From the sequence record OZ346219.1: DNA of 64,000 bases. One strand, given 5' to 3'. Position 1 is the first letter of the stretch. The number at the start of each line of letters is the position of its first letter. Positions 1 to 48,918 of the stretch are shown here, in pieces. The translations under genes and the position numbers were made by a program. This DNA comes from a phage. The notes beneath the pieces are model-generated. The model did not search any database and was not told the DNA's origin. It saw nothing but the letters and a program-made list of their open reading frames with translations.

Positions 1-2817
<2,817 letters not shown>

Positions 2818-2851: not shown

Positions 2852-4855
2852 ATGACTCTATTATCACCGGGTTTCGAAACGAAAGAAACTACTCTCTCCA
2901 CTACCATTGTGCAATCTGCGACTGGTCGCGCGGCACTGGTAGGTAAATTCCAATGGGGTCCAGCTTTCCAGATTATTCAAGTAACTAATGAAGTTGAATT
3001 AGTTAATAAATTTGGTCAGCCGGATAATAACACCGCAGACTATTTCATGAGCGGGGCTAACTTCCTCCAGTATGGCAATGACCTGCGTGTTGTTCGTGTA
3101 TTGAATAAAGAAAAAGCGAAAAACGCAACTGCCCTAGCTGGTAACATCGAGTTTGAAATCACAAACGAAGGTTCAAACTATGAAGTAGGCGATACCATCA
3201 AGATTAAACATAACCGTCAAGATATTGAAACGGCTGGTAAAGTAACTAAAGTTGATGGTGATGGTAAAGTTAAGGGCGTATTTATCCCAACTGGTAAAAT
3301 TATCGCTCACGCTAAAGCAATCGGTGTATATCCAGAACTTGATGGCGGTTGGACGGCAGAGTTCACTTCTTCGTCAGGTAACGGTAGTGCGGTGCTGTCA
3401 GTAACTAAAATTGTTACTGATTCCGGTCTTCTGTTAACGGATCTGGAAACTTCCCGCGCCAATATCACAAATCAGACTTTCTTGACTAAACTCCAGAAGT
3501 ATGATATGCCAGCGGTAAGCGCGATCTATGCTGGTGAGATTGGCAACTCGCTGGAAGTTGAAATTCTGGCACGTAGCGCGTTCAGTGGCGCGGTAGCACC
3601 TGAATTAACTATGTATCCGTTCGGCGGAACTCGTGCCGCAGCACGCAACCTGATTCCATATGCACCGCAGAATGATAATCAATATGCATTTATTGTTCGT
3701 CGCGATGGTGTTGTGGTAGAATCCTATGTACTGTCTACTCTGAAAGGGGATAAAGACGTATACGGCAATTCTATCTACATGGACGACTTCTTTGCTCGTG
3801 GTTCTAGCCAGTACATCTATGCAACCGCTCAAGGGTGGGTAGATGGTTTCAGTGGTATTATCTCTCTTGCTGGTGGTGTTTCTGCTAACGAAGCAACGAC
3901 TGGTGGAGTTGGTGCTGATCCGTTCATCGGTGCGATGATGCAAGGTTGGGATCTGTTTGCTGAACGAGAATCTATTCACGTAAACCTGTTGATTGCTGGT
4001 GCATGTGCTGGCGAAGGCGATGCGTTCTCTACCGTACAGAAACATGCTGTTTCCATCGGTGATGAGCGTCAGGATTGCTTAGTAATGGTTTCTCCGCCGC
4101 GTAGCACTGTTGTTAATATTCCGGTGACTACTGCAATTGATAACCTGATTGCATGGCGCGAAGGTTCAGGAAACTATAATGAAAACAACATGAACATTAA
4201 TACCACTTACGCGGTTATTGATGGTAACTACAAATATCAGTATGACAAATACAACGACGTAAACCGTTGGGTTCCGTTGGCTGCTGATATTGCTGGTTTG
4301 TGCGCTCGTACTGATGCTGTATCCCAGCCGTGGATGAGTCCGGCAGGTTATAACCGTGGTCAGATCATGAACGTGGTTAAACTGGCAATTGAGCCTCGTA
4401 AGGCGCACCGCGATCGTCTGTATCAGGCCGCAATTAACCCGGTAATCGGTGCTGGCGGTGAAGGGTTTATCCTAATGGGTGATAAAACCGCTACGACTGT
4501 TCCTAGCCCGTTTGACCGCATTAACGTTCGTCGTCTGTTTAACATGCTGAAAAAGAATATCGGCGATTCAAGCAAATACAAACTGTTTGAAAACAACGAT
4601 AACTTTACTCGCGCTTCCTTCCGTATGGAGGTTTCGCAATATCTCAGCACGATTCGCTCTCTGGGTGGCATTTATGACTTCCGAGTACAATGCGACACCA
4701 CGAATAACACGCCGGATGTAATTGATCGTAACGAATTTGTTGCTAGTATGTTCATCAAACCAGCAAAATCGATCAACTATATCATGCTCAATTTCACTGC
4801 TGTTGCAACTGGTTCTGATTTTGACGAAATTATCGGTCCAGCTAACCAGGCATAA
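2852..4855 (+). CDS. 18: tail sheath protein gp18
   Basis: 667 aa; N-terminus MTLLSPG..FQWGPAFQI.QVTNEV and C-terminal NDVNRWVPLAADIAGLCARTD match T4 gp18; RBS gagg upstream. Confidence 0.96.
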   Translation: MTLLSPGFETKETTLSTTIVQSATGRAALVGKFQWGPAFQIIQVTNEVELVNKFGQPDNNTADYFMSGANFLQYGNDLRVVRVLNKEKAKNATALAGNIEFEITNEGSNYEVGDTIKIKHNRQDIETAGKVTKVDGDGKVKGVFIPTGKIIAHAKAIGVYPELDGGWTAEFTSSSGNGSAVLSVTKIVTDSGLLLTDLETSRANITNQTFLTKLQKYDMPAVSAIYAGEIGNSLEVEILARSAFSGAVAPELTMYPFGGTRAAARNLIPYAPQNDNQYAFIVRRDGVVVESYVLSTLKGDKDVYGNSIYMDDFFARGSSQYIYATAQGWVDGFSGIISLAGGVSANEATTGGVGADPFIGAMMQGWDLFAERESIHVNLLIAGACAGEGDAFSTVQKHAVSIGDERQDCLVMVSPPRSTVVNIPVTTAIDNLIAWREGSGNYNENNMNINTTYAVIDGNYKYQYDKYNDVNRWVPLAADIAGLCARTDAVSQPWMSPAGYNRGQIMNVVKLAIEPRKAHRDRLYQAAINPVIGAGGEGFILMGDKTATTVPSPFDRINVRRLFNMLKKNIGDSSKYKLFENNDNFTRASFRMEVSQYLSTIRSLGGIYDFRVQCDTTNNTPDVIDRNEFVASMFIKPAKSINYIMLNFTAVATGSDFDEIIGPANQA

Positions 4856-5481: not shown

Positions 5482-7047
5482 ATGTTTAGTAGATTAAAAA
5501 TGCTTGCGCGTTGGGCTGATTTTGACAACGACAAATACGAAGAACAAATTAAAGATAAAGCAGAGTCTATCGCCGCACCTAAAAACAATGATGGTGCTAC
5601 GGAAGTAGAAATTAATGATAATTCACCTGCTAGCTCGTGGAACTCTCTTACCCAGCAATTTTACAGCACCGACCAGAAAATCAGCACAACTAAGCAATTA
5701 GTTAACACATATCGCGGTTTGATGAATAACCATGAAGTCGAAAACGCTGTACAAAATATCGTTAACGATGCGATTGTATTTGAAGAAGGTCATGAAGTTG
5801 TTTCATTAAATCTTGAGGCGACTGGCTTTAGTGAATCTGTAAAAGAGCGCATTCATGAAGAATTTAAAGATCTTTTAAACACTATCCAGTTTGATAGGCG
5901 CGGTCAGGATATGTTCCGTCGCTGGTATGTCGATTCTCGTATTTTCTTCCATAAAATCATCGGCAAAAATCCAAAAGATGGTATCATAGAATTACGCCAG
6001 CTTGACCCACGTAATCTTGAATACGTTCGAGAGATCATTACAGAAGACACACCGGAAGGTAAAATTTATAAAGCAACGAAAGAATATTTCATTTACACTG
6101 TAGGCAATAGCTCTTATTGCGCAGGTGGTCAAGTATTCTCTCCTAATAGTCGCGTTAAAATCCCGCGTAGTGCTATTACATACGCTCACAGCGGCTTGAT
6201 GGATTGCGATGATAAATATATCATTGGTTATTTGCATCGGGCTGTTAAGCCAGCAAACCAGCTTAAATTGTTGGAAGACGCAATGGTCGTTTATCGTATC
6301 ACGCGTGCACCGGAACGCCGAGTGTTCTTTATTGATACCGGAAACATGAACAACCGCAAGGCTGCACAGCACATGAACTCAGTGGCACAGTCTTTTAAAA
6401 ACCGCGTTGTTTATGATGCATCGACTGGTAAACTTAAAAACCAGCAAGCAAATCTATCAATGACAGAGGACTACTGGTTACAGCGTCGAGATGGTAAAGC
6501 AATCACCGACGTTACTACTTTACCAGGTGCATCCGGTATGAGTGATATCGATGATATTCGCTACTTTAACCGTAAATTGTATGAAGCGTTGCGTGTGCCA
6601 TTGTCACGTAGCAATCTCTCCGATGCAAATATGGTGATCGGTGGTGACGGTTCAGAAATTACTCGCGATGAGTTGGAATTTTCGAAATTCATTAGAACTC
6701 TGCAATCACAGTTTTCGGAAGTATTGCGCGATCCGCTTAAATATAATCTGATTCTCAAAAATGTAATTACGGAAGACGATTGGGATCGTGAAATAAATAA
6801 TATCAAGGTGGTTTTCCATCGGGACTCTTACTATACAGAAGTTAAAGACGCGGAAATTTTAGAGCGTCGAATCGGTCTAATCGAACGTATTACACCTTAC
6901 ATTGGTAAATATTTCTCTAACCAGACAGTGATGCGTGACATTCTGAAATATACCGATGACCAGATGGACACCGAGAAGAAACAGATCGAAGAAGAAGCGA
7001 ACGATCCGCGCTTTAAACAAACTCCCGATGAAATAGAGGATTTTTAA
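5482..7047 (+). CDS. 20: portal vertex protein gp20
   Basis: 521 aa; RRWYVDSRIFFHKII, IGYLHRAVKPANQLKLLEDA, MTEDYWLQRRDGKA match T4 gp20. Confidence 0.96.
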   Translation: MFSRLKMLARWADFDNDKYEEQIKDKAESIAAPKNNDGATEVEINDNSPASSWNSLTQQFYSTDQKISTTKQLVNTYRGLMNNHEVENAVQNIVNDAIVFEEGHEVVSLNLEATGFSESVKERIHEEFKDLLNTIQFDRRGQDMFRRWYVDSRIFFHKIIGKNPKDGIIELRQLDPRNLEYVREIITEDTPEGKIYKATKEYFIYTVGNSSYCAGGQVFSPNSRVKIPRSAITYAHSGLMDCDDKYIIGYLHRAVKPANQLKLLEDAMVVYRITRAPERRVFFIDTGNMNNRKAAQHMNSVAQSFKNRVVYDASTGKLKNQQANLSMTEDYWLQRRDGKAITDVTTLPGASGMSDIDDIRYFNRKLYEALRVPLSRSNLSDANMVIGGDGSEITRDELEFSKFIRTLQSQFSEVLRDPLKYNLILKNVITEDDWDREINNIKVVFHRDSYYTEVKDAEILERRIGLIERITPYIGKYFSNQTVMRDILKYTDDQMDTEKKQIEEEANDPRFKQTPDEIEDF

Positions 7048-7290
7048 ATGAAACAATTTATCGAAGCAATTAAAACTCGCGATCTAACGCTGATCGAAAA
7101 AGAATTTGATAAGATCATGGAGGCTAAAAAAGCCCAGATCATCGAATCCCAGCGTGTCGAAATCGCATCCAGTATCATGATCGAAGGTGAAGAAGAAAAA
7201 GACCGCGATGATGAAAAAGATATGGATGATGAGGACGACGAAGACGAAGATCGCAAAGACGATAAAAAAGACAAAGAAGACGACGAATAA
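7048..7290 (+). CDS. 67: prohead core protein gp67
   Basis: 80 aa, acidic C-terminal tail; position and composition as T4 gp67. Confidence 0.85.
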   Translation: MKQFIEAIKTRDLTLIEKEFDKIMEAKKAQIIESQRVEIASSIMIEGEEEKDRDDEKDMDDEDDEDEDRKDDKKDKEDDE

Positions 7291-27035: not shown

Positions 27036-27515
27036 TGCTAAATCATTGCAATATTTTAGTGCCTTAGTTTGAAACTCTGCGCTGTTAAGTTCTTCATAAC
27101 GGTCATAATCACCGTTTAATGCTGCCTTTCTTGCTTCTTGCTCTATCTGCATGTCAGACATGATAATACAGCGATCCCGTGCTTTCATCTTCTCAAGTTG
27201 TATAGACTCTTCTTTCTGCTTGCGCAATTCTTCTTGACGCTTCTTTTCTTCTTGTGCTTTCTCTTCCCGCGCTTCTTTGATTGCATCCTTGAACATCTGC
27301 GTTTGTGGTGCTAAACCAACTTTAACCCGATCTACGTCTCGACGTTCCATTTTAGAAATAAAGCATGATTCGATCTGTTTATCACTTGCATATGATGCTT
27401 TACATTCACGAAGCAAGAAAACCGGATCTGATTTAGCATTCATCATAGCTTCCATGTTGGTACAACCAGTAAGCATGAATGCAGCCGCAAGACCAATCAG
27501 TTTAATCATTTTCAT
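27030..27515 (-). CDS. putative lipoprotein
   Basis: 161 aa; signal peptide with lipobox LTGC; charged coiled-coil region. Confidence 0.6.
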   Translation of the reverse strand: MKMIKLIGLAAAFMLTGCTNMEAMMNAKSDPVFLLRECKASYASDKQIESCFISKMERRDVDRVKVGLAPQTQMFKDAIKEAREEKAQEEKKRQEELRKQKEESIQLEKMKARDRCIIMSDMQIEQEARKAALNGDYDRYEELNSAEFQTKALKYCNDLAK

Positions 27516-28336
27516 TTAGTCACCTCACCGAAAATTGTAAATTGTCTACGATTCTCATCGCCGAAAGATTCTACTACGTCGTTTACCTTTACGCAAGTCC
27601 CGCGCGGTAAAATTACTTCACATTCGCAAGGATTCCATGCAATTGACCCAACAACAAAACCTTTATGATCTTTTACTTCAATTACCCATGATACATTACA
27701 AGAATGTTGCATCTTTCCGGTCATTGATTCATATCGATTCTCACAATAAAGGCTAGTGCTGTTTGATAGCCATCCTCCAAAGATGATTGGTGTCATGCTG
27801 GTTGACACAAAGTTTTTAAAGGTAAATTCCTTATCTTCAATAATACGCTCTATTGTCTGAATGTCAAGATGTTGACCGCGATAAAGAGTACAGTTTAACT
27901 TTTCGGTTTTATCCATGACACAATCCATCAAATCAACAATCTCTGATATCTCATTGGTCATGTCTTCTTCCCCTAAGAGAGCACCATTTACCCATTCGTA
28001 TTGTTCAGACACATAATCACAGATTGCATTATATTCTGCTGGGGTTATGTTGTTATGTTTGTAATGTTTGAATACATTATCTCCAAAGTCTTCGGAGTGT
28101 ACTTCATACATCACATTAATGATTTTCTTGACAAATCCATAATCTTGTGTCTCTCGCTCAAGGAAGCGGATAACCTTCACATAATCATCAAAGTTAATCT
28201 GATCGCTGATCATCTCAGTGATCATGTAGCCATTAATCCCCTCAATGTCATATGTTTCGATGTAATTATCCATACGTTCCATCATTGATTCGCGTGATTC
28301 TTCTGAAAGACGAAAATCCTGTAATTGTTTGAACAT
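27512..28336 (-). CDS. ADP-ribosyltransferase, short Alt/Mod-like paralog
   Basis: 274 aa; R-S-ExE motifs (LYRGQ, VSTSMTP, ECEVILPRG) shared with adjacent alt. Confidence 0.75.
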   Translation of the reverse strand: MFKQLQDFRLSEESRESMMERMDNYIETYDIEGINGYMITEMISDQINFDDYVKVIRFLERETQDYGFVKKIINVMYEVHSEDFGDNVFKHYKHNNITPAEYNAICDYVSEQYEWVNGALLGEEDMTNEISEIVDLMDCVMDKTEKLNCTLYRGQHLDIQTIERIIEDKEFTFKNFVSTSMTPIIFGGWLSNSTSLYCENRYESMTGKMQHSCNVSWVIEVKDHKGFVVGSIAWNPCECEVILPRGTCVKVNDVVESFGDENRRQFTIFGEVTK

Positions 28337-28414: not shown

Positions 28415-30466
28415 TTACATTTTAAATTTATCCGGCATTGCGTCTACAGATACCAGATCAGCGATAAGCTGACGTAGAGTTGCCTTATCTGCTTTCTTAC
28501 GTTCGGTTTTAGCTTCGCTAATGAAGCTGGAGAAAGACAGGTCAGAAGCAGGTTTAACAACACCTTCACGGATGAATGCATCACCGTCCGCGATCATCTC
28601 GCCAGATTCTTGTAATGCTGCCAGTTCATTTTTGTTCATAATATGTGCCTCAATGTAATAAGTTTCTTGTGAATCCGTCGATGCAGTAGCACGAGTTACC
28701 GTATCAAAGGATAACACAACACCGCGAGGAAGTAAAATCTCGCATTCTTTGTAAGCAAATGCTTTGTTACCTACTGGCAAGACAGGGATGTTTTCCGCGC
28801 CAGCAATGGAGAAAGCAACATTAGCGCCACCTTCACCGCGAGAGCCAGCCATAGAATCAACACCAGCAACGGCACTAGCCACGTTTGCATTCCAGCCGCC
28901 AAAAATGTTAGGTGCAAGGGAAGTGCTCACATAGTTTTTAAAGTAAAACGCTTTTTGCTTACGTGCAGTTTCCCACATTTGCGACCGGAAGTCCATACCA
29001 CGATACAGAATAGTACCAGGATCAAGTTTAACGCCATAGTTAGAGAAGGCATTATCCAGTGCATCGCACATCTTGACCAGTTCTTCTGGATCTGCGATTC
29101 CTTCAAACTCTTCCAGCTTACGGTCGGTTAGGAAGTTGTTCATGTTGATGTATGCTGCATCGGCATATTCGCTCAACACAAAACCTTCCGCGCCCGGCAG
29201 ATCAAGATCAATATCTGCCATCATTTCACCCATGTTGCTAGCAATTGCTTCAAACATACCGGAAGCAACATTACGTAGGGCATCGGTTTTAATCTGGGTG
29301 ATATGACTACGCAGCATTTCAGCTTTTACATCTGCTGGCATAGACTGGTCTACTCGATCCATTGCCAGAGCGGTGATCTTGTTTTCGAATACTTCCTCGC
29401 TCATGATTTCTTTTAAGCGTTTGATTGATGCTGCGATAACTTCCGCAGACAACGGATCATATTGATCCTGAACTTTTACCAGTTCGCTTACTGCGTATTT
29501 TGCATCGGCTTCGCTTTCAAAAATAGTACGCATGAAACCATAGCGAGTGATAATATCACTTGTCCAGTCATTCAGAGAACGAGCGGTTGAACGTTCTAAT
29601 GCTTGACGATCAATCAGAGTATTAAACTGTTTCTTAGGTTCGGCTTCGGTGATATCTTCTTCTGGTTTAAGATTAATTTTTTCTGGATGATTCACGTAGT
29701 CGCTGTTATATGTCGCTTGAGTTTTCAGCATTTCTTCTTTAGTCAAACGAGATTTAGCCGCTACGCGTTGTTCTGCTTCCGCGTTTCGTTCTTCTTCTGA
29801 CACAAGACTAGCCGCATATGCCTCATCTTTAGTCAGAGATTCACCCGTAGCCTTAGATACCCAGCGATCACCTAAATCACTTTCTACTTTAGTGAACAAG
29901 GATTCATCAAGTTTAATACCTTTAATCTTATCAATCGCCATCCCGCGACGCTTGACAACAACTAAAGCGATCTTTTTGCTGGTCATTACTTCCTGCTGGA
30001 ATACTTCAAACTTCGGTGTACGACGCACCAAACGCTCTATAACGCGCTTAACCAGTTCGGTCTTACCTTTCATGCGGGATACGTTAAAACGGAACATAAC
30101 AGCGTCTAATTGCGCTTTACGGGCTGTTTCCATAACCACATCAAAAGCACTTGCCATAACTGCAATCGGGTTATCGCCTAGACCATTTTTAAGCTGTACA
30201 ATACGACCGCTTTTGTTCATTTCGCACAGTACAACATGTGCGGTCTTGTCACCCATACGAATGATTTTAGGTGTTTTGTTGGTGAAGTTACAAAGACGGA
30301 CAATCACATCTTTATCGCGTGTCTGTACTGCAAAAAGCTGTTTAGGATTCTGCTTAGGCTTTAAGCACTGTACCGGAGCAATACTACCAAAGTTTTCTTC
30401 CTCTTCCGTCAACAGCCATTTCTCGAAAGATTCAATCATTAGATCGTCGATTTCTAAGTTAAACAT
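28415..30466 (-). CDS. alt: Alt ADP-ribosyltransferase (head-packaged)
   Basis: 683 aa; LFTKVES.LGD, ILYRGMD, FYFKNYVSTSLAPNIFGGW, ECEILLPRG as in T4 Alt. Confidence 0.88.
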   Translation of the reverse strand: MFNLEIDDLMIESFEKWLLTEEEENFGSIAPVQCLKPKQNPKQLFAVQTRDKDVIVRLCNFTNKTPKIIRMGDKTAHVVLCEMNKSGRIVQLKNGLGDNPIAVMASAFDVVMETARKAQLDAVMFRFNVSRMKGKTELVKRVIERLVRRTPKFEVFQQEVMTSKKIALVVVKRRGMAIDKIKGIKLDESLFTKVESDLGDRWVSKATGESLTKDEAYAASLVSEEERNAEAEQRVAAKSRLTKEEMLKTQATYNSDYVNHPEKINLKPEEDITEAEPKKQFNTLIDRQALERSTARSLNDWTSDIITRYGFMRTIFESEADAKYAVSELVKVQDQYDPLSAEVIAASIKRLKEIMSEEVFENKITALAMDRVDQSMPADVKAEMLRSHITQIKTDALRNVASGMFEAIASNMGEMMADIDLDLPGAEGFVLSEYADAAYINMNNFLTDRKLEEFEGIADPEELVKMCDALDNAFSNYGVKLDPGTILYRGMDFRSQMWETARKQKAFYFKNYVSTSLAPNIFGGWNANVASAVAGVDSMAGSRGEGGANVAFSIAGAENIPVLPVGNKAFAYKECEILLPRGVVLSFDTVTRATASTDSQETYYIEAHIMNKNELAALQESGEMIADGDAFIREGVVKPASDLSFSSFISEAKTERKKADKATLRQLIADLVSVDAMPDKFKM

Positions 30467-32632: not shown

Positions 32633-32874
32633 ATACGCCCCTTTAATCCAACACAGATTTTAGAAGGTTCTTTGCCGTGCCACATTAAGTAAAGTCCGTT
32701 AATGCGGCCTTGTTTTGTATATGATTCTTTTCTGATCTTCTTATAGTGTCGTGTTTCCTCAACTGATTGTTTAGAATACCAATCATAAAGGAAGAGGCAC
32801 AAAGGCCAACCATTAGCGGCCTTTGTGCAGTTATTAAGAAATTCCTTATTGCGTTTAATTAATTTTCTTTTCAC
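32629..32874 (-). CDS. hypothetical protein (81 aa)
   Basis: ATGA overlaps with neighbours. Confidence 0.5.
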   Translation of the reverse strand: MKRKLIKRNKEFLNNCTKAANGWPLCLFLYDWYSKQSVEETRHYKKIRKESYTKQGRINGLYLMWHGKEPSKICVGLKGRI

Positions 32875-33122
32875 GCTGCCCCCATTGGTTTGATAGTAAC
32901 AGAATCTAAAAGACCTTTGTTAGCCAGTTCGCGGCAAGTTTTCAGATCCGCAACTTCCCAGCCAGCCGCAATCAGGTTATCAATGAGGCTGTTAGCAACT
33001 TCTTCGCTCATGAAAGAGCACTGTTTGCCGATGGTGTAGCGTACACGCTGTAATTTCAGTTTACGGAAGCCTTTAACGTTCAGGTCTTTAGCGATTTTCT
33101 TTGCGGTTTCGATGTTAGCCAT
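32871..33122 (-). CDS. hypothetical protein (83 aa)
   Basis: conserved leader with RBS ggaga. Confidence 0.55.
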   Translation of the reverse strand: MANIETAKKIAKDLNVKGFRKLKLQRVRYTIGKQCSFMSEEVANSLIDNLIAAGWEVADLKTCRELANKGLLDSVTIKPMGAA

Positions 33123-33152
33123 TGTTTGATTCTCCTAAGTGGTATCTCGTCT

Positions 33153-33181
33153 TGATGGTTGTATTGTAGGGGAGTTATCCT
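33153..33181 (-). promoter_or_regulatory. sigma70-like early promoter cassette with stem-loop (PeSL-like)
   Basis: TTGACA-N17-TACAAT; stem-loop ggggagttatcctcccc. Confidence 0.6.
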
Positions 33182-33205
33182 CCCCTGTCAACACTTTTTA
33201 TAAAA

Positions 33206-33373
33206 TTATTTGTTAATTTCCGGTGCGTTGCTCGGATAGTAACCTTCTTTAACACCCAGATATTTTGCAACCATCCCTACAATCTTCTGTGCTACTACAA
33301 TGTCAAATTTCAGATAATCTTCGCCGTGGGTTTCAATGATATATGCTTCACATGCTGCTTTAGTCTCGAACAT
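33206..33373 (-). CDS. small protein (55 aa), copy A of duplicated gene
   Basis: MFETKAACEAYIIETHGEDYLKFDIVVAQKIVGMVAKYLGVKEGYYPSNAPEINK; paralog at 36492-36659. Confidence 0.5.
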   Translation of the reverse strand: MFETKAACEAYIIETHGEDYLKFDIVVAQKIVGMVAKYLGVKEGYYPSNAPEINK

Positions 33374-33407
33374 TTTGATTCTCCTATTTCGTTTCGTTAT
33401 GTGTGTA

Positions 33408-33436
33408 TTATAGGGGATCTCCCGATCCCCGTCAAC
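33408..33436 (-). promoter_or_regulatory. sigma70-like early promoter cassette with stem-loop (PeSL-like)
   Basis: TTGACG-N17-TATAAT; stem-loop ggggatctcccgatcccc. Confidence 0.6.
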
Positions 33437-33449
33437 AACTTTTTTAAAA

Positions 33450-33731
33450 TTATTCGTGATTAGTTTCGATGTTGTGCATTTTGCACCAGTTCAGCCAATC
33501 GCCCAGATCTTGATAGTTGATGCTTTTATCTGCTGCCATCGTTTTTGTCTTGATACCCATATGTGCGTTATGAGTAAGCATTTTTACAGTGAACTCGATT
33601 TTATCGCCTTTAGCTTTAACATCAACCAGTTTTGTCCACTGGCTACCAGCACCGCGAATGTTCATACCAACGATGTTTCCGATGTATGCTTCTTTGTTTT
33701 TCAGGATTTCGGTTGCTTTGATGAATTTCAT
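33450..33731 (-). CDS. hypothetical protein (93 aa)
   Basis: ORF with leader/RBS. Confidence 0.55.
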   Translation of the reverse strand: MKFIKATEILKNKEAYIGNIVGMNIRGAGSQWTKLVDVKAKGDKIEFTVKMLTHNAHMGIKTKTMAADKSINYQDLGDWLNWCKMHNIETNHE

Positions 33732-33763
33732 TTTTGATTCTCCAGTTCGTTTCGGTATGGGTG

Positions 33764-33792
33764 TATTATGCTATGTTCTTACTTTGGTGTCA
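33764..33792 (-). promoter_or_regulatory. sigma70-like early promoter cassette (PeSL-like)
   Basis: TTGACA-N17-CATAAT. Confidence 0.6.
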
Positions 33793-33802
33793 ACAACTTT
33801 TT

Positions 33803-34072
33803 TTAGATATTTTCAGAAATAAATTTTAAAACTTGACGTAAATGTTTCTCATCTTTGATAGTCGCCGGAAGTTCTTCTTTTACTTCCTGTGCAAGATAGA
33901 TATTTCCGTTCCAAGTGAAAGATCCGTCTTCGTTTACGCGATAGCTGAACATCCACTCGCAATCATTTTCGATTTCATATACACACAGAAGGGTGTAATC
34001 GTTAAAGCTATTGATTTCAAGGTCGAAGCCGTGACGTTTTGCAAAGTTGGTAGTGGTTTTAGTCAGCGCCAT
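33803..34072 (-). CDS. hypothetical protein (89 aa)
   Basis: ORF with RBS ggag. Confidence 0.55.
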   Translation of the reverse strand: MALTKTTTNFAKRHGFDLEINSFNDYTLLCVYEIENDCEWMFSYRVNEDGSFTWNGNIYLAQEVKEELPATIKDEKHLRQVLKFISENI

Positions 34073-34111
34073 TGTTTGATTCTCCTAAGTGGTATCTCGT
34101 TTCGATGGGTG

Positions 34112-34140
34112 TATTATGCTATAGGCGTGATCTGGTGTCA
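34112..34140 (-). promoter_or_regulatory. sigma70-like early promoter cassette (PeSL-like)
   Basis: TTGACA-N17-CATAAT. Confidence 0.6.
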
Positions 34141-34164
34141 ACAACTTTTTTAATTTTTTGGAAA

Positions 34165-34190
34165 TAAAAAAGCCGACACTAAGGTCGGCT
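34165..34190 (-). terminator. rho-independent terminator (leftward)
   Basis: A-run + agccgac actaag gtcggct. Confidence 0.55.
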
Positions 34191-34201
34191 AATAAAATCA
34201 T

Positions 34202-34507
34202 TTAGACAAAATAATCATTCAGTGCAATCCGGTCGGCGTATGCTGGTGTTACGTCAATCGCAATCACTTTAACGCGTGCTTTCTTGCGACCTGGGTTTTC
34301 TCGTAACCAGTGCTCATGACCGTGAACATTTTTATACTTTGATGCTTCTTCAAATGTACGGATCGGACCTGGATAATCTGCGTAAAGGATCTCTAGGTCT
34401 TCGGTGATGTAAAAATATACATCATAATTACTGTTCTCTAGTTTAAGCAGAGACTTTCGGAACATTGGGAGATTTTCGCGGGTAAATTCAAAGATATTAT
34501 CTTTCAT
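34202..34507 (-). CDS. small protein, HxHW paralog family member
   Basis: 101 aa; HGHEHWL...RVKVIAIDV. Confidence 0.55.
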   Translation of the reverse strand: MKDNIFEFTRENLPMFRKSLLKLENSNYDVYFYITEDLEILYADYPGPIRTFEEASKYKNVHGHEHWLRENPGRKKARVKVIAIDVTPAYADRIALNDYFV

Positions 34508-34531
34508 AGTATTATCCTCAATAGTTTGATG

Positions 34532-34555
34532 AAAAGGGGTGGGGCTTAACGCCCC
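34532..34555 (-). terminator. rho-independent terminator (leftward)
   Basis: A-run + ggggcttaacgcccc (same hairpin as at 30513). Confidence 0.5.
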
Positions 34556-34560
34556 GTATA

Positions 34561-34848
34561 TTAAAACAGTCCTTCCTGTACACCGTAGTAGAGTTCATCG
34601 CTGATAATTTCATTAATGCGACGGTGTGCATATTCCTGATTTGCGAAGTTATCAGCAAGTTCTACTTTAGTTTCTCCGTCATGAGTCCATTTAGTGATAA
34701 CTTTACCATCTGCAAATTTGAAGTTGAACTCTTTAGCTACTGCATCGCGTACCAGACGTGCGAACTTGTTATTACGGATTGCATTATCGGTTTCGTGTGC
34801 AGCGTGAGCGAATTTGTTAACTTTCAGAGTGATAGTAATGTATGCCAT
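34561..34848 (-). CDS. hypothetical protein (95 aa), AKEFN family
   Basis: RLVRDAVAKEFNFK; paralogous to 37855-38166. Confidence 0.55.
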   Translation of the reverse strand: MAYITITLKVNKFAHAAHETDNAIRNNKFARLVRDAVAKEFNFKFADGKVITKWTHDGETKVELADNFANQEYAHRRINEIISDELYYGVQEGLF

Positions 34849-34894
34849 AATTTGATTCTCCTAGTTAGAAAGTGTATCTCGTTTCGATGGGTGT

Positions 34895-34923
34895 ATTATG
34901 CTATACACCCGATCTTATGTCAA
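34895..34923 (-). promoter_or_regulatory. sigma70-like early promoter cassette (PeSL-like)
   Basis: TTGACA-N17-CATAAT. Confidence 0.6.
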
Positions 34924-34929
34924 CACTTT

Positions 34930-35208
34930 TTATAAAATAATTTTTTGATATTTTTCTATGATGTTTGTGTAGGTCACGTCAACCGCTAGCACCGTTGCTT
35001 CGAATCCACCGTTTAGCCAATGGCTATGATCATGATCGTGAAAGAAACCAAGACCAGTACGAAGACCTTCTTTATATTCGGCGCGTACATTTAGATCATC
35101 ATCGATAAACAGATAAAACCATGAATTTTTACTAGGATTGATGATACAACCTTTCAGATTAGGGAGAATATCACGACTAAGAATAAACTTATCACCTACT
35201 TTGAACAT
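34930..35208 (-). CDS. small protein, HxHW paralog family member
   Basis: HDHSHWL...ATVLAVDV; start set at MFKVGDKF with RBS (track ORF starts 35223). Confidence 0.5.
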   Translation of the reverse strand: MFKVGDKFILSRDILPNLKGCIINPSKNSWFYLFIDDDLNVRAEYKEGLRTGLGFFHDHDHSHWLNGGFEATVLAVDVTYTNIIEKYQKIIL

Positions 35209-35212
35209 AATA

Positions 35213-35533
35213 TTAGTCCTCATTTATAAGGTCAAACCAATTGTTTTTCGCATAATGCTTAATGCGTGCTTGATCTGCTTCCGCTGGTGATAGATTCCAT
35301 GCAACCACTACAACTTCTGACGCATCGTCATCCGTTTCTGATACCCAATGATTGTGATTCATACAGTTATTTGCGATCGAGTGAGCAAATGATTTCATCA
35401 CTGGAGACGTATAATCATAGTAACGGATTTTCAGATTTTCATCAACGTACAAATAGATCGTATAAGGTTTATATTCAGTAACCAGTAACAGACAGTTACG
35501 CAATTCTGGGAAAATCTTTTTAGTTAATTTCAT
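35213..35533 (-). CDS. small protein, HxHW paralog family member
   Basis: MNHNHWV...EVVVVAW; start set at MKLTKKIF with RBS gagg (track ORF starts 35614). Confidence 0.5.
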   Translation of the reverse strand: MKLTKKIFPELRNCLLLVTEYKPYTIYLYVDENLKIRYYDYTSPVMKSFAHSIANNCMNHNHWVSETDDDASEVVVVAWNLSPAEADQARIKHYAKNNWFDLINED

Positions 35534-35534
35534 T

Positions 35535-35753
35535 TTATAATCCTCGGTCGCGGCTATAGTACACGGTACGCCATACAATTTCATGTTTCGTGTCGCTCCA
35601 GCACACGATCTCATTTACTCTTAAATCTTTGTTATCAACAAAAGATGAACATTGTGACGCTTCTTTCATCATTTTATCTGCTGTTTTCTCATCAAATACA
35701 GCACAGATTTCTTTATACACTCGATAATCTTTGAATTGACTCTGAATACCCAT
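35535..35753 (-). CDS. small protein, tandem paralog B
   Basis: FKDYRVYKEICAVFDEKTADKMMKEASQCSSF aligns with upstream paralog. Confidence 0.45.
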   Translation of the reverse strand: MGIQSQFKDYRVYKEICAVFDEKTADKMMKEASQCSSFVDNKDLRVNEIVCWSDTKHEIVWRTVYYSRDRGL

Positions 35754-35976
35754 AATTAACACCATTCCAACCAATTGTTTTTGAGAAAACGTTTATCCAC
35801 TGTTGAGTGTAACATGTTTCTTTCCATGATACAATACGAGTAGAATAATGGTTTTTGTTTCCAGAAAAGGACGGGCATTTTGATGCATCTTCCATCATCT
35901 TTTCGGCGAACTCTGGTGCGTATACTCGCAGGATCTGTTGATATGCTTTGTATTCTTTAAATTTGCTCATAATCAT
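35713..35976 (-). CDS. small protein, tandem paralog A
   Basis: FKEYKAYQQILRVYAPEFAEKMMEDASKCPSF. Confidence 0.45.
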   Translation of the reverse strand: MIMSKFKEYKAYQQILRVYAPEFAEKMMEDASKCPSFSGNKNHYSTRIVSWKETCYTQQWINVFSKTIGWNGVNYGYSESIQRLSSV

Positions 35977-36235
35977 TCACTACCTTATCAGCTTCTTTTG
36001 TTGTTTTTACATCAACTGCGATAACTCGTAAAGGTTCGTCATGGTTCCACCAGTGGTCATGAATATCAGCTTGTGATTTATCACCAAAGGAATCACGAAT
36101 ATCATTTTTACATTTATAGCTAATGTGACCTTCATAGTCAACATAAAGGTAATTATCGAAAATCGGCGTTTTTAAGATCATACCGAAAAATCTTTCTTTG
36201 TGTGTCTTATCCAGCGTTGCAGTAATTCGCATCAT
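35957..36235 (-). CDS. small protein, HxHW paralog family member
   Basis: IHDHWWN...LRVIAVDV; RBS agagga. Confidence 0.55.
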   Translation of the reverse strand: MMRITATLDKTHKERFFGMILKTPIFDNYLYVDYEGHISYKCKNDIRDSFGDKSQADIHDHWWNHDEPLRVIAVDVKTTKEADKVVNDYEQI

Positions 36236-36247
36236 AATATATTCCTC

Positions 36248-36427
36248 TTAGAAAGGGATGGTCATTTCTTGAGCTTGTACGTTCTCGTTAGGATTAAACT
36301 TCATCCAGCCGATATTGTCTACCAGCATATGCACATTTTTATCATATCCTACGTGGGTAGTCAATACTGTATGTGCTTTACCTTCAATGATGAGTTCCAT
36401 GTACTTCTGAACTTCGATAGCTTTCAT
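36248..36427 (-). CDS. small hypothetical protein (59 aa)
   Basis: conserved leader/RBS; below track size cut-off. Confidence 0.4.
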   Translation of the reverse strand: MKAIEVQKYMELIIEGKAHTVLTTHVGYDKNVHMLVDNIGWMKFNPNENVQAQEMTIPF

Positions 36428-36459
36428 TTTGATTCTCCGTTTGTTGTCTTGATGGGAGT

Positions 36460-36488
36460 ATCTTACTACTCCCTTTAATCATTGTCAA
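36460..36488 (-). promoter_or_regulatory. sigma70-like early promoter cassette with stem-loop (PeSL-like)
   Basis: TTGACA-N17-TAAGAT; stem-loop gggagtatcttactactccc. Confidence 0.55.
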
Positions 36489-36491
36489 CTA

Positions 36492-36659
36492 TTATTTGTT
36501 AATTTCCGGTGCGTTGCTCGGATAGTAACCTTCTTTAACACCCAGATATTTTGCAACCATTCCGGTGATCTTCTGTGCTACTACGATATCGAATTTCAGG
36601 TAGTCTTCACCGTGGTTTGCTACAATGTATGCTTCGCATTCTGCTTTAGTCTGGAACAT
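36492..36659 (-). CDS. small protein (55 aa), copy B of duplicated gene
   Basis: MFQTKAECEAYIVANHGEDYLKFDIVVAQKITGMVAKYLGVKEGYYPSNAPEINK. Confidence 0.5.
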   Translation of the reverse strand: MFQTKAECEAYIVANHGEDYLKFDIVVAQKITGMVAKYLGVKEGYYPSNAPEINK

Positions 36660-36691
36660 TTTTGATTCTCCTATCTCGTTGGTATGTGTGC

Positions 36692-36720
36692 ATTATAGGG
36701 GATCACCGATCCCCTGTCAA
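36692..36720 (-). promoter_or_regulatory. sigma70-like early promoter cassette with stem-loop (PeSL-like)
   Basis: TTGACA-N17-TATAAT; stem-loop ggggatcaccgatcccc. Confidence 0.6.
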
Positions 36721-36725
36721 CAACT

Positions 36726-37019
36726 TTATAATGCTTTATATGCGTATTTCATAAATTTGTCTGCCACTTCATTGGCATGTTCAGATTCTACGCCTGATTC
36801 TAGAACAATAGCTAGGTCGGTTTCGTCATTCCCGCCGTACCAATGATTTGATGTTCGATTTTTTTCAATTGGAAATTGGTCACTTTTATCTGTGCGACAA
36901 AATACATCTAAATGCTCGTCGATGTAAAAGATCCAATCTTCATAAAGAATAACGGTATTAGCCAGATTTTTATTGCCTTCAACGAAAGGTTCGGCTACAA
37001 ACAAATTAGTATGTTCCAT
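36726..37019 (-). CDS. small protein, HxHW paralog family member
   Basis: SNHWYGG...LAIVLESGV; start set at MEHTNLF with RBS gagga (track ORF starts 37076). Confidence 0.45.
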   Translation of the reverse strand: MEHTNLFVAEPFVEGNKNLANTVILYEDWIFYIDEHLDVFCRTDKSDQFPIEKNRTSNHWYGGNDETDLAIVLESGVESEHANEVADKFMKYAYKAL

Positions 37020-37283: not shown

Positions 37284-37586
37284 TTACGCAAAATGGCGTG
37301 TCAATGCTTCTTTTGCTGTTCCGCTAAGATTCTCGATCTCTCCTGGCATAACCTCAACCGCAAGAACTTCTACAACATCCTCTGATCCTAACCAGTGAGT
37401 ATGACCTTTGTAGAACTTGATATCCCATTTATCGCTATCGCTAGCCCACCACACATCACCGTCGATAAAGTTGATGTAAAGCACACTACGACACATTGAA
37501 TTAATTACTTTCAATACTGCGCCTTTCATCTCTTCCACGGTATGGTCTTCCATTTTGAAGACCTCGCCTACCTTAACTTTTGCCAT
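37284..37586 (-). CDS. small protein, HxHW paralog family member
   Basis: GHTHWLGSEDVVEVLAVEV. Confidence 0.55.
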   Translation of the reverse strand: MAKVKVGEVFKMEDHTVEEMKGAVLKVINSMCRSVLYINFIDGDVWWASDSDKWDIKFYKGHTHWLGSEDVVEVLAVEVMPGEIENLSGTAKEALTRHFA

Positions 37587-48577: not shown

Positions 48578-48745
48578 TCACTTTTTAACACAAAAGAACT
48601 TAGTATTTCTGTTAACTTCGATATCCTGCTGCAATTCCTGCACAGCTTCAAAACAATTTTGATGTGATGAAAACTCTACGCTGGTAACAGTTCCTTTATT
48701 ATATGATCCTACGCTAACGGAAAGCAATAACCATAATGTAGCCAT
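48578..48745 (-). CDS. small protein (55 aa), tandem paralog
   Basis: MATLWLLLSVSVGSYNKG...; TAATG overlap with upstream ORF. Confidence 0.35.
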   Translation of the reverse strand: MATLWLLLSVSVGSYNKGTVTSVEFSSHQNCFEAVQELQQDIEVNRNTKFFCVKK

Positions 48746-48918
48746 TAGTTCACCTTTTGTTTTTCAACGCAATATAGATTCATAAAGCGTTTATTGTCTT
48801 CACGGATAATCTCGCGAGCTTTAACGCAATCCTGCTTTGTTGCAAACTCAATGCTTGACATATTTCCGTAATTATACATTGAATTGCTGATTGCAATCAA
48901 TAACCATACAGTAGCCAT
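48745..48918 (-). CDS. small protein (57 aa), tandem paralog
   Basis: MATVWLLIAISNSMYNYG... Confidence 0.35.
   Translation of the reverse strand: MATVWLLIAISNSMYNYGNMSSIEFATKQDCVKAREIIREDNKRFMNLYCVEKQKVN

Follow-up and report, generated by a model that had tools for sequence, protein, structure and literature searches.

The tufA and tufB genes of Salmonella are an instance of interlocus gene conversion between dispersed paralogs. Another kind of exchange has been described in the T4-type phages RB49 and Phi1, where promoter-early stem-loop (PeSL) cassettes of ~100 bp flank unrelated ORFan genes and are proposed to recombine with each other (Arbiol et al., 2010, PMC2839356; Comeau et al., 2014, PMC4122927). 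In this system, open reading frame (ORF) 191 was recovered on a circular PeSL mini-circle carrying ORFs 191–194, PeSL206/205 of RB49 acted as a very strong promoter of ~13,000 Miller units in a lacZ fusion, and terminator activity was published for PeSL211/210 of RB49 (Arbiol et al., 2010). Here, we describe a gene pair at which both kinds of exchange appear to have left traces. The window, i.e., the whole stretch of phage DNA that was analyzed (64,000 nucleotides (nt) of sequence record OZ346219.1), carries two minus-strand ORFs of 55 amino acids (aa), termed copy A (33206–33373) and copy B (36492–36659), which by position are the homologs of ORF191 and ORF205 of RB49 and Phi1, respectively. 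They are best explained as two old paralogs, each made up of a PeSL and an ORF, where the 3′ end of copy A was recently converted by copy B in this phage lineage, a reading to which we assign a probability of roughly 0.85.

The 4-kb stretch around the pair matches 59 database records, all of them RB49-like Krischvirus, and is 98.6% identical at the nucleotide level to Escherichia phage kaaroe; over this region, kaaroe and FL37 are close relatives of the window (98.5–98.6%). The window thus comes from a T4-type coliphage of the RB49-like genus Krischvirus, and the pair is located in a hyperplastic region, rich in accessory genes, between alt and the DNA ligase gene 30. For RB49 and Phi1, Arbiol et al. 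(2010) described this region among their “hyperplastic regions.” The words “paralog” and “gene conversion” do not occur in the text of that study, so the paralogy of ORF191 and ORF205 went unremarked there, and the pair is undiscussed in both PeSL papers (PMC2839356, PMC4122927). A literature search for gene conversion or paralogs in Krischvirus or RB49 returned eukaryotic papers only.

Two Diverged Copies with an Identical 3′ End

Both ORFs exist as given in the first-pass annotation of the window, with translations equal to its own letter by letter, and the near-identical 3′ ends and diverged 5′ parts which it reported are borne out. Over their 168 nt, copies A and B show 20 differences (88% identity overall), which affect 11 codons synonymously and six non-synonymously and all lie within ORF nt 7–99. 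The 5′ part thus holds 20 differences in 99 nt (80% identity), as opposed to none in the 69 nt of the 3′ part. The exact run extends over 70 nt, corresponding to the last 69 nt of the ORF and one nucleotide beyond, and a run this long is expected from 20 random differences on 168 sites with P = 2.5e-4 (200,000 placements). A search for an RNA element in the identical tract returned no Rfam family at threshold; one sub-threshold match located elsewhere was rejected as due to chance.

Beyond the ORFs, the ungapped flanks are ~33% identical in the same register, which equals random sequence, whereas the PeSLs upstream of A and B (~70 nt) align with small indels; homology ends 2 nt past the stop codon. 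The repeat unit therefore consists of the ORF and its upstream PeSL and includes no larger segment. A and B are the sole close paralog pair in the 64-kb window, where other pairs share 25–47% aa identity, and tblastn detected no third copy in the window.

The promoter cassette which the first-pass annotation had placed ahead of each copy is confirmed as a near-consensus sigma-70 promoter whose 17-nt spacer contains a G/C stem-loop (TTGACG-17-TATAAT for copy A, TTGACA-17-TATAAT for copy B). Near-consensus sigma-70 cassettes with a 17-nt spacer also follow each copy. In a promoter scan, the -35 and -10 hexamers upstream of A and B matched the consensus at 11/12 and 12/12 positions, and those of the downstream cassettes at 11/12 and 10/12. 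An AT-rich AATTTTAAAAAAG lies ahead of the -35 element, GGAG is found 7–8 nt before the ATG, and the cassette hairpins (GGGGATC...GATCCCC and GGGGAG...CTCCCC) have minimum free energies of -14.9 to -20.5 kcal/mol (z -1.9 to -4.5). In the cassette downstream of B, the -10 hexamer TAAGAT sits inside the stem-loop GGGAGTAGTAAGATACTCCC. By these sequence features, the cassettes are predicted to be PeSLs as defined by Arbiol et al. (2010), and the upstream and downstream PeSLs bound copy A as a single-gene cassette.

Distribution and Age of the Pair

Both copies are present in 52 of the 59 krischvirus records (tblastn and megablast), including RB49, Phi1, JSE, and GEC-3S, where both are annotated as hypothetical proteins. 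The window proteins are 98–100% identical at the aa level to those of RB49, Phi1, and JSE. For comparison, 35 copies were extracted from 20 krischvirus genomes, a set which includes 14 two-copy phages besides the window and 17 A-type copies from other phages. Nine of the 20 5′ differences between A and B are fixed in all 35 copies, and the other 11 are broken only in a few mosaic alleles. For the 5′ half (codons 1–33), the Nei-Gojobori method (NG86) yields a synonymous divergence (dS) of ~1.47 and a non-synonymous divergence (dN) of ~0.095 (dN/dS ~0.065), which indicates that the split is old and that both copies are under purifying selection. A and B are long-standing paralogous early-gene cassettes, each comprising a PeSL and a 55-aa ORF.

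Probable Conversion of Copy A in the Lineage of the Window

Within nt 100–168, copies A and B of the same phage show two to seven synonymous differences in the 14 other two-copy phages and none only in the window; the corresponding dS of the 3′ half is 0.16–0.88 in the former and 0.000 in the latter. At six diagnostic sites (108/114/117/120/141/153), most A copies carry G, C, C, A, T, and A, while copy A of the window carries A, T, G, T, G, and G. The window’s copy A thus retains none of the six A-type alleles and is identical to its own copy B at these sites, for which a lineage-specific B-to-A conversion tract is the likely cause. Among the sampled A-type copies, 141G occurs besides the window only in the closely related alleles of kaaroe, FL37, and Cognac. 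No database record contains the A allele of the window (best matches 99.4%). Nearly the same converted allele is found one site apart in kaaroe and two sites apart in FL37 and Cognac, and also, one to two sites apart, in W115 and LF73P4. These alleles include nested intermediates, as kaaroe_A retains only A153, while FL37_A and Cognac_X retain both G108 and A153 around a converted core. B alleles at 6/6 diagnostic sites and the intermediate mosaics of the relatives thereby lend support to the gene conversion that had initially been suggested.

Mechanistically, a short non-reciprocal homologous recombination event, i.e., interlocus gene conversion, would have overwritten the 3′ end of copy A with copy B sequence and erased six synonymous differences. 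The tract would measure between 46 and 70 nt (Table 1) and was probably built in nested steps, and the phage’s own T4-type recombination and recombination-dependent replication machinery is the presumed agent.

Recurrent Mosaics, Deletions, and Insertions in Krischvirus

Judging from mosaic alleles in other phages, conversion between A and B appears to be recurrent in Krischvirus. PTE-Eco09_A contains B-type sequence at nt 7–24 and encodes a chimeric protein, Brandy_B and PTE-Eco09_B contain A-type sequence at nt 51–75, and the A and B alleles of PHB13 are swapped at sites 141 and 153. A-type alleles at the same two sites are found in MIZ5_B, although this phage has no copy A, and G2494_A and Makalu003_A are further mosaic alleles. 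Sites 24, 141, and 153 show polymorphisms common to both paralogs, and variants of the upstream PeSL stem-loop (loops GGGA, ACC, and GGT) are exchanged between A and B in different phages. The paralog-distinguishing residues 13–15 and 32 are kept in almost all copies, the exceptions being residue 15 in Phi1_B and residue 13 in RB49_A. In this small sample, their survival hints at selection against homogenizing that part of the gene.

The ~240-bp direct repeats formed by PeSL and ORF also support crossovers, and the whole interval between them has been lost in two phages. Cognac and FL04 have a single copy, which combines the upstream neighbor of B with the ORF and downstream neighbor of A, and the whole interval is absent. 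The junction lies between the Shine-Dalgarno (SD) sequence and ORF nt 7 in Cognac (stretch L003, ~6934–7168) and inside the PeSL core in FL04 (stretch L007, ~6431–6668), and these different junctions indicate independent deletion events. The upstream gene of FL04 differs as well (519 nt vs. ~300 nt).

In other phages, copy A alone would have been lost through exchange between two PeSLs. JK32, Brandy, UPWr_E1, MIZ4, and MIZ5 have only copy B, and in JK32 and Brandy, whose empty A sites were read, a single chimeric PeSL remains. Its UP element, -35, stem-loop, and -10 derive from the cassette upstream of A, while its 5′ untranslated region and SD derive from the cassette downstream of A, with the junction in ACAC(A)CAT right after the -10 (JK32, L004, 10682–10765; Brandy, L017, 1422–1505). 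This empty site exactly fits the prediction of the PeSL excision/insertion model. The PeSL directly ahead of A is a hot spot of insertion and occurs in at least three states: the window and Phi1 have no additional gene there, RB49, FL38, and G2494 have an ORF192-type gene of 474–477 nt, and JSE has an unrelated gene of 312 nt. In PTE-Eco09 (L015, 2869–3419), copy B stands right after an ORF210-type gene and the homologs of ORF206–209 are missing, which is another PeSL-bounded deletion beside the pair.

Alternative Explanations

The first-pass annotation had proposed “a recent segmental duplication or gene conversion,” of which only the conversion holds. A recent duplication of a single gene would have to be followed by rapid divergence of the 5′ part alone. 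This would agree with the overall identity and the perfectly identical 3′ end in the window, but both copies carry the same fixed 5′ differences across the genus (RB49, Phi1, JSE, GEC-3S) and occur together in 52 of 59 records, the 5′ dS is near saturation with a dN/dS that gives no sign of accelerated protein evolution, and other phages do show two to seven differences in the 3′ part. In addition, homology is confined to the ORF and its promoter cassette, no neighboring gene is duplicated, and the 5′ identity of 80%, the ungapped flanks at ~33%, and the presence of the second copy in relatives are at odds with a segmental duplication, so that a recent origin of the pair is very improbable. 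An assembly artefact, in which one gene was expanded to two or a chimeric consensus across the repeat produced identical 3′ ends, was an earlier concern and is less credible still. Consensus errors can indeed arise at short repeats, and the window is alone in having the fully converted A allele; however, dozens of genomes that were assembled independently have both copies annotated (the two-copy architecture recurs in 52), A and B are each set in unique flanks and show 20 private 5′ differences, the 70-nt repeat is shorter than ordinary reads, and five phages (kaaroe, FL37, Cognac, W115, and LF73P4) share nearly the same converted allele. At most, polishing errors could have affected the outermost sites 108 and 153. 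The 70 nt might also have been kept identical without recombination if purifying selection acted on the nucleotides themselves, for instance on an embedded RNA element or a regulatory or binding site. While none of the 35 copies examined shows a change in the C-terminal 23 residues and the tract abuts the next promoter, 9/69 sites are synonymously variable among phages (108, 114, 117, 120, 132, 141, 153, 159, with multi-allelic 117), which shows that these nucleotides are free to change in sister phages, and the RNA fold of the tract is not significant (z = -0.65); we therefore regard such selection as highly unlikely to account for the identity. Were the identity ancestral rather than converted, the 3′ half would have had to stay free of synonymous change as the 5′ half neared saturation; this reading also conflicts with the place of the window among close relatives of kaaroe and FL37.

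A more serious alternative departs from the reading preferred here only in the origin of the second copy. Copy A would then be a xenolog, imported on a PeSL mini-circle from another lineage, and its 3′ end would later have been homogenized against the resident copy B. Such an import is in line with the clean PeSL-bounded single-gene cassette of copy A, the single chimeric PeSL at the empty site of JK32 and Brandy, the experimentally detected mini-circle carrying ORF191 (PMC2839356), the diverged relatives in unrelated siphoviruses (70%, 40%) and in the metagenomic contig P0003 (78%), and the ~3-fold gap in dS between the two gene halves. Yet, no donor lineage with an A-type gene was identified, and B-only phages hold A-derived patches (Brandy_B nt 51–75, MIZ5_B 141/153), which makes loss of A at least as likely as its primary absence. 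On balance, the import of copy A is a possible but distinctly less likely course of events, and the second copy may first have originated either by in-situ duplication or by mini-circle import of a diverged ortholog.

Several points weigh against a recent conversion of copy A by copy B within an old pair. The B-to-A direction is based on parsimony across 20 genomes, and the converted allele could come from a co-infecting relative, which would be the same process in a different place. In other phages, dS of the 3′ half (~0.5) is also below that of the 5′ half (~1.5), suggesting that part of the 3′ similarity stems from older homogenization or that the two halves differ in origin. That the phage recombination machinery plays a role is an assumption taken from T4 biology. 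Lastly, the 55-aa protein itself offers little footing, having no Pfam match, no relative in the Protein Data Bank (PDB), and an AlphaFold2 model with a predicted local distance difference test (pLDDT) score of 64.

Gene Neighborhood

The gene order of the window (alt, a series of small ORFs, an HNH endonuclease, and gene 30) matches RB49 ORFs 184–213 and Phi1, and the order around the pair agrees with RB49p190–p213 and phi1p190–p213 in the hyperplastic region from alt to gene 30. The tested products of the ORFans between the two copies all belong to PHROGs of unknown function. The coordinates of the pair, its PeSLs, and related loci are listed in Table 1.

Table 1. Features of the paralogous pair in the window and related loci in other phages.
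Feature	Position	Strand	Description
Copy A, 55-aa early ORFan	33206..33373	-	Position of RB49p191/phi1p191 (ORF191); PHROG 8009, E = 6.8e-38
Copy B, 55-aa early ORFan	36492..36659	-	Position of RB49 ORF205/Phi1 ORF205; likely donor of the conversion tract; PHROG 8009, E = 1.2e-38
Putative converted tract of copy A, maximal	33205..33274	-	70 nt, identical to 36491–36560; encodes the C-terminal 23 residues and the stop codon
Putative converted tract of copy A, minimal	33221..33266	-	ORF nt 108–153; spans the diagnostic synonymous sites 108, 114, 117, 120, 141, 153
Matching tract of copy B (probable donor)	36491..36560	-	From exact-run computation and between-phage comparison
PeSL upstream of A	33374..33445	-	AT-rich UP region; -35 TTGACG 33430–33435; -10 TATAAT 33407–33412; SD GGAG 33381–33384
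Stem-loop in PeSL upstream of A	33413–33430	-	GGGGATC-GGGA-GATCCCC
PeSL upstream of B (RB49 PeSL206/205)	36660..36730	-	-35 TTGACA 36715–36720; stem-loop 36697–36715; -10 TATAAT 36692–36697; SD GGAG 36668–36671
PeSL downstream of A	33123..33205	-	For ORF190 homolog 32871–33122; -35 33186–33191; stem-loop GGGGAGGATAACTCCCC; -10 TACAAT 33163–33168
PeSL downstream of B	36428..36491	-	For ORF204 homolog 36248–36427; -35 TTGACA 36483–36488; -10 TAAGAT 36460–36465; fold z = -4.46
Interval between the direct repeats	33374..36491	-	10 small ORFan genes, homologs of RB49 ORFs 193, 194, 197–204
Inserts upstream of A	RB49 (L002) 6449–6925; FL38 (L012) 465–938; G2494 (L013) 489–962; JSE (L009) 452–763		
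Siphovirus homolog loci	swi2 (L005) 4001–4358; SeSz-2 (L018) 756–1113; Sasha (L019) 472–866		

Further repeats are found in the same part of the window. A family of ~95–105-aa ORFans occurs in up to six repeats within 3.4 kb on the minus strand (34202–34507, 34930–35208, and 35213–35533, as well as 35957–36235, 36726–37019, and 37284–37586, which were recognized by eye only) and shares the pattern “...Y.Y.D...HW...V.A.DV.” Three members match phrog_9345, one of them only weakly (E = 1.5e-5) and with phrog_17255 as its best match; a blastp comparison of 35213–35614 with 34202–34507 gave 31.6% identity (E = 6.6e-12), and the family has no Pfam match. The minus-strand ORFs 35535–35765 and 35713–35976 are adjacent, slightly overlapping paralogs (39.7% identity, E = 3e-14), which both contain “...KMM(K/E)(E/D)AS(Q/K)C(S/P)SF...” and represent an old tandem duplication within the interval. 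A canonical intrinsic terminator on the minus strand (34171–34190), with a 7-bp G/C-rich stem followed by TTTTTATTT, comes after ORF 34202–34507; few terminators of this non-PeSL type occur in the interval, and the annotations of Makalu_003, GEC-3S, and G2494 list it as a terminator.

Outside the region of the pair, two adjacent tiny paralogs of 55 and 57 aa (48578–48745 and 48745–48918, minus strand) share 38% identity (E = 1e-12). An Alt-like ADP-ribosyltransferase (28415–30466, minus strand) is accompanied by a shorter paralog of its C-terminal part (27512–28336, minus strand; 36.7% over 109 aa), and this pair is present in RB49 too (ORF184/ORF183).

Protein Family and Possible Role

Both copies match PHROG 8009, a family of unknown function, over residues 1–55 of the 55-position profile. 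The Pfam search gave no match even at E ≤ 10, and the PDB sequence profile search gave none at E ≤ 1. A word-indexed search of 5.8 billion proteins returned five matches, two of which are apparently chimeric or fused ORFs, and an exhaustive HMMER search of 1.84 billion representatives returned only three credible full-length clusters; its other matches, to one chimeric ORF and to short segments of long proteins, were judged spurious. The metagenomic sequences P0004 and P0005 start like copy B and continue with unrelated sequence, one ending in a fragment of a histidine-kinase-like ATPase (PF02518). Chimeric assembly or frameshifted calling is the probable explanation for both, rather than real fusion.

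Diverged relatives are encoded by Swiduovirus and Skatevirus siphoviruses (70% aa identity), by Sashavirus (40%), and on contig P0003 (78%), which mixes A-like and B-like residues and has a different, non-PeSL context. The siphovirus homologs adjoin terminase genes, and each is followed by a conserved partner gene of 68–70 aa (MPTNYMPRCLREIPK...), for which tblastn found no homolog in the window. Among the PHROG 8009 carriers found, only krischviruses have two copies.

Two AlphaFold2 runs on shallow alignments (pLDDT 64.5 and 64.4) predicted helices at residues 5–16 and 18–39 and a low-confidence tail. The low-confidence model suggests that the helical N-terminal part carries the A/B-specific residues, while the C-terminal tail GYYPSNAPEINK (...EGYYPSNAPEINK), which is invariant in the krischvirus copies, has a pLDDT below 50. 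A small, non-essential early factor in host interaction or anti-defense would be the best guess for the role of the protein, given the predicted strong early promoter and the location in a block of dispensable ORFans.

More speculatively, and in our view rather doubtfully, the pair might be kept functionally differentiated, with conversion homogenizing the 3′ tail while selection maintains the divergence at residues 13–15 and 32, and the ~240-bp repeats might make a single excisable and re-insertable module of the ten ORFans which they enclose. In that case, the paralogs might recognize two host targets or form a heterodimer, the reciprocal product would be a 3.3-kb mini-circle with one PeSL-ORF copy as a homology handle, and Cognac and FL04 would represent the empty state of the module.

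Comparison with Known Systems

The locus may serve as a natural illustration of how T4-type phages homogenize and delete accessory genes via very short homologies, where the same repeats yield both conversion tracts of tens of nt and deletions of multi-gene blocks. The copy state (two-copy, single chimeric, or B only) is a convenient typing marker for krischviruses, a group with several members in phage-therapy use, and the pair is also a caution for assembly and polishing.

The closest described system is the PeSL shuffling of RB49 and Phi1 (Arbiol et al., 2010; Comeau et al., 2014), which involves the same loci, with copy B behind PeSL206/205 and copy A as ORF191. Both share the succession of AT-rich UP element, -35, G/C stem-loop, -10, and SD, and the junctions of indel polymorphisms fall inside PeSLs. 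In contrast to the published model, however, the homology of the pair runs on through paralogous coding sequence, giving a repeat of ~240 bp, and repeats of this type yield non-crossover conversion tracts inside the ORF in addition to crossovers. The PeSL shuffling model can thereby be extended from promoter cassettes to promoter-plus-paralog repeats.

With interlocus conversion, as in tufA/tufB or eukaryotic segmental duplications, the pair shares short tracts of anomalous identity in diverged paralogs, shared polymorphisms, mosaic alleles which differ among strains, and persisting islands of divergence. Unlike those cases, it is found in a lytic phage, involves 168-nt genes 3.3 kb apart and tracts of only tens of nt, and is presumably driven by a phage-encoded recombination system. 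Integron gene cassettes offer an analogy only, in that small promoter-dependent accessory genes can exit in circular form and reinsert at a boundary element that recurs; the system in the window has neither integrase nor attC, works by general homologous recombination between PeSLs, and supplies each cassette with its own promoter. The pair is therefore no new kind of system but a fresh, well-resolved instance of two known processes, PeSL shuffling and interlocus gene conversion.

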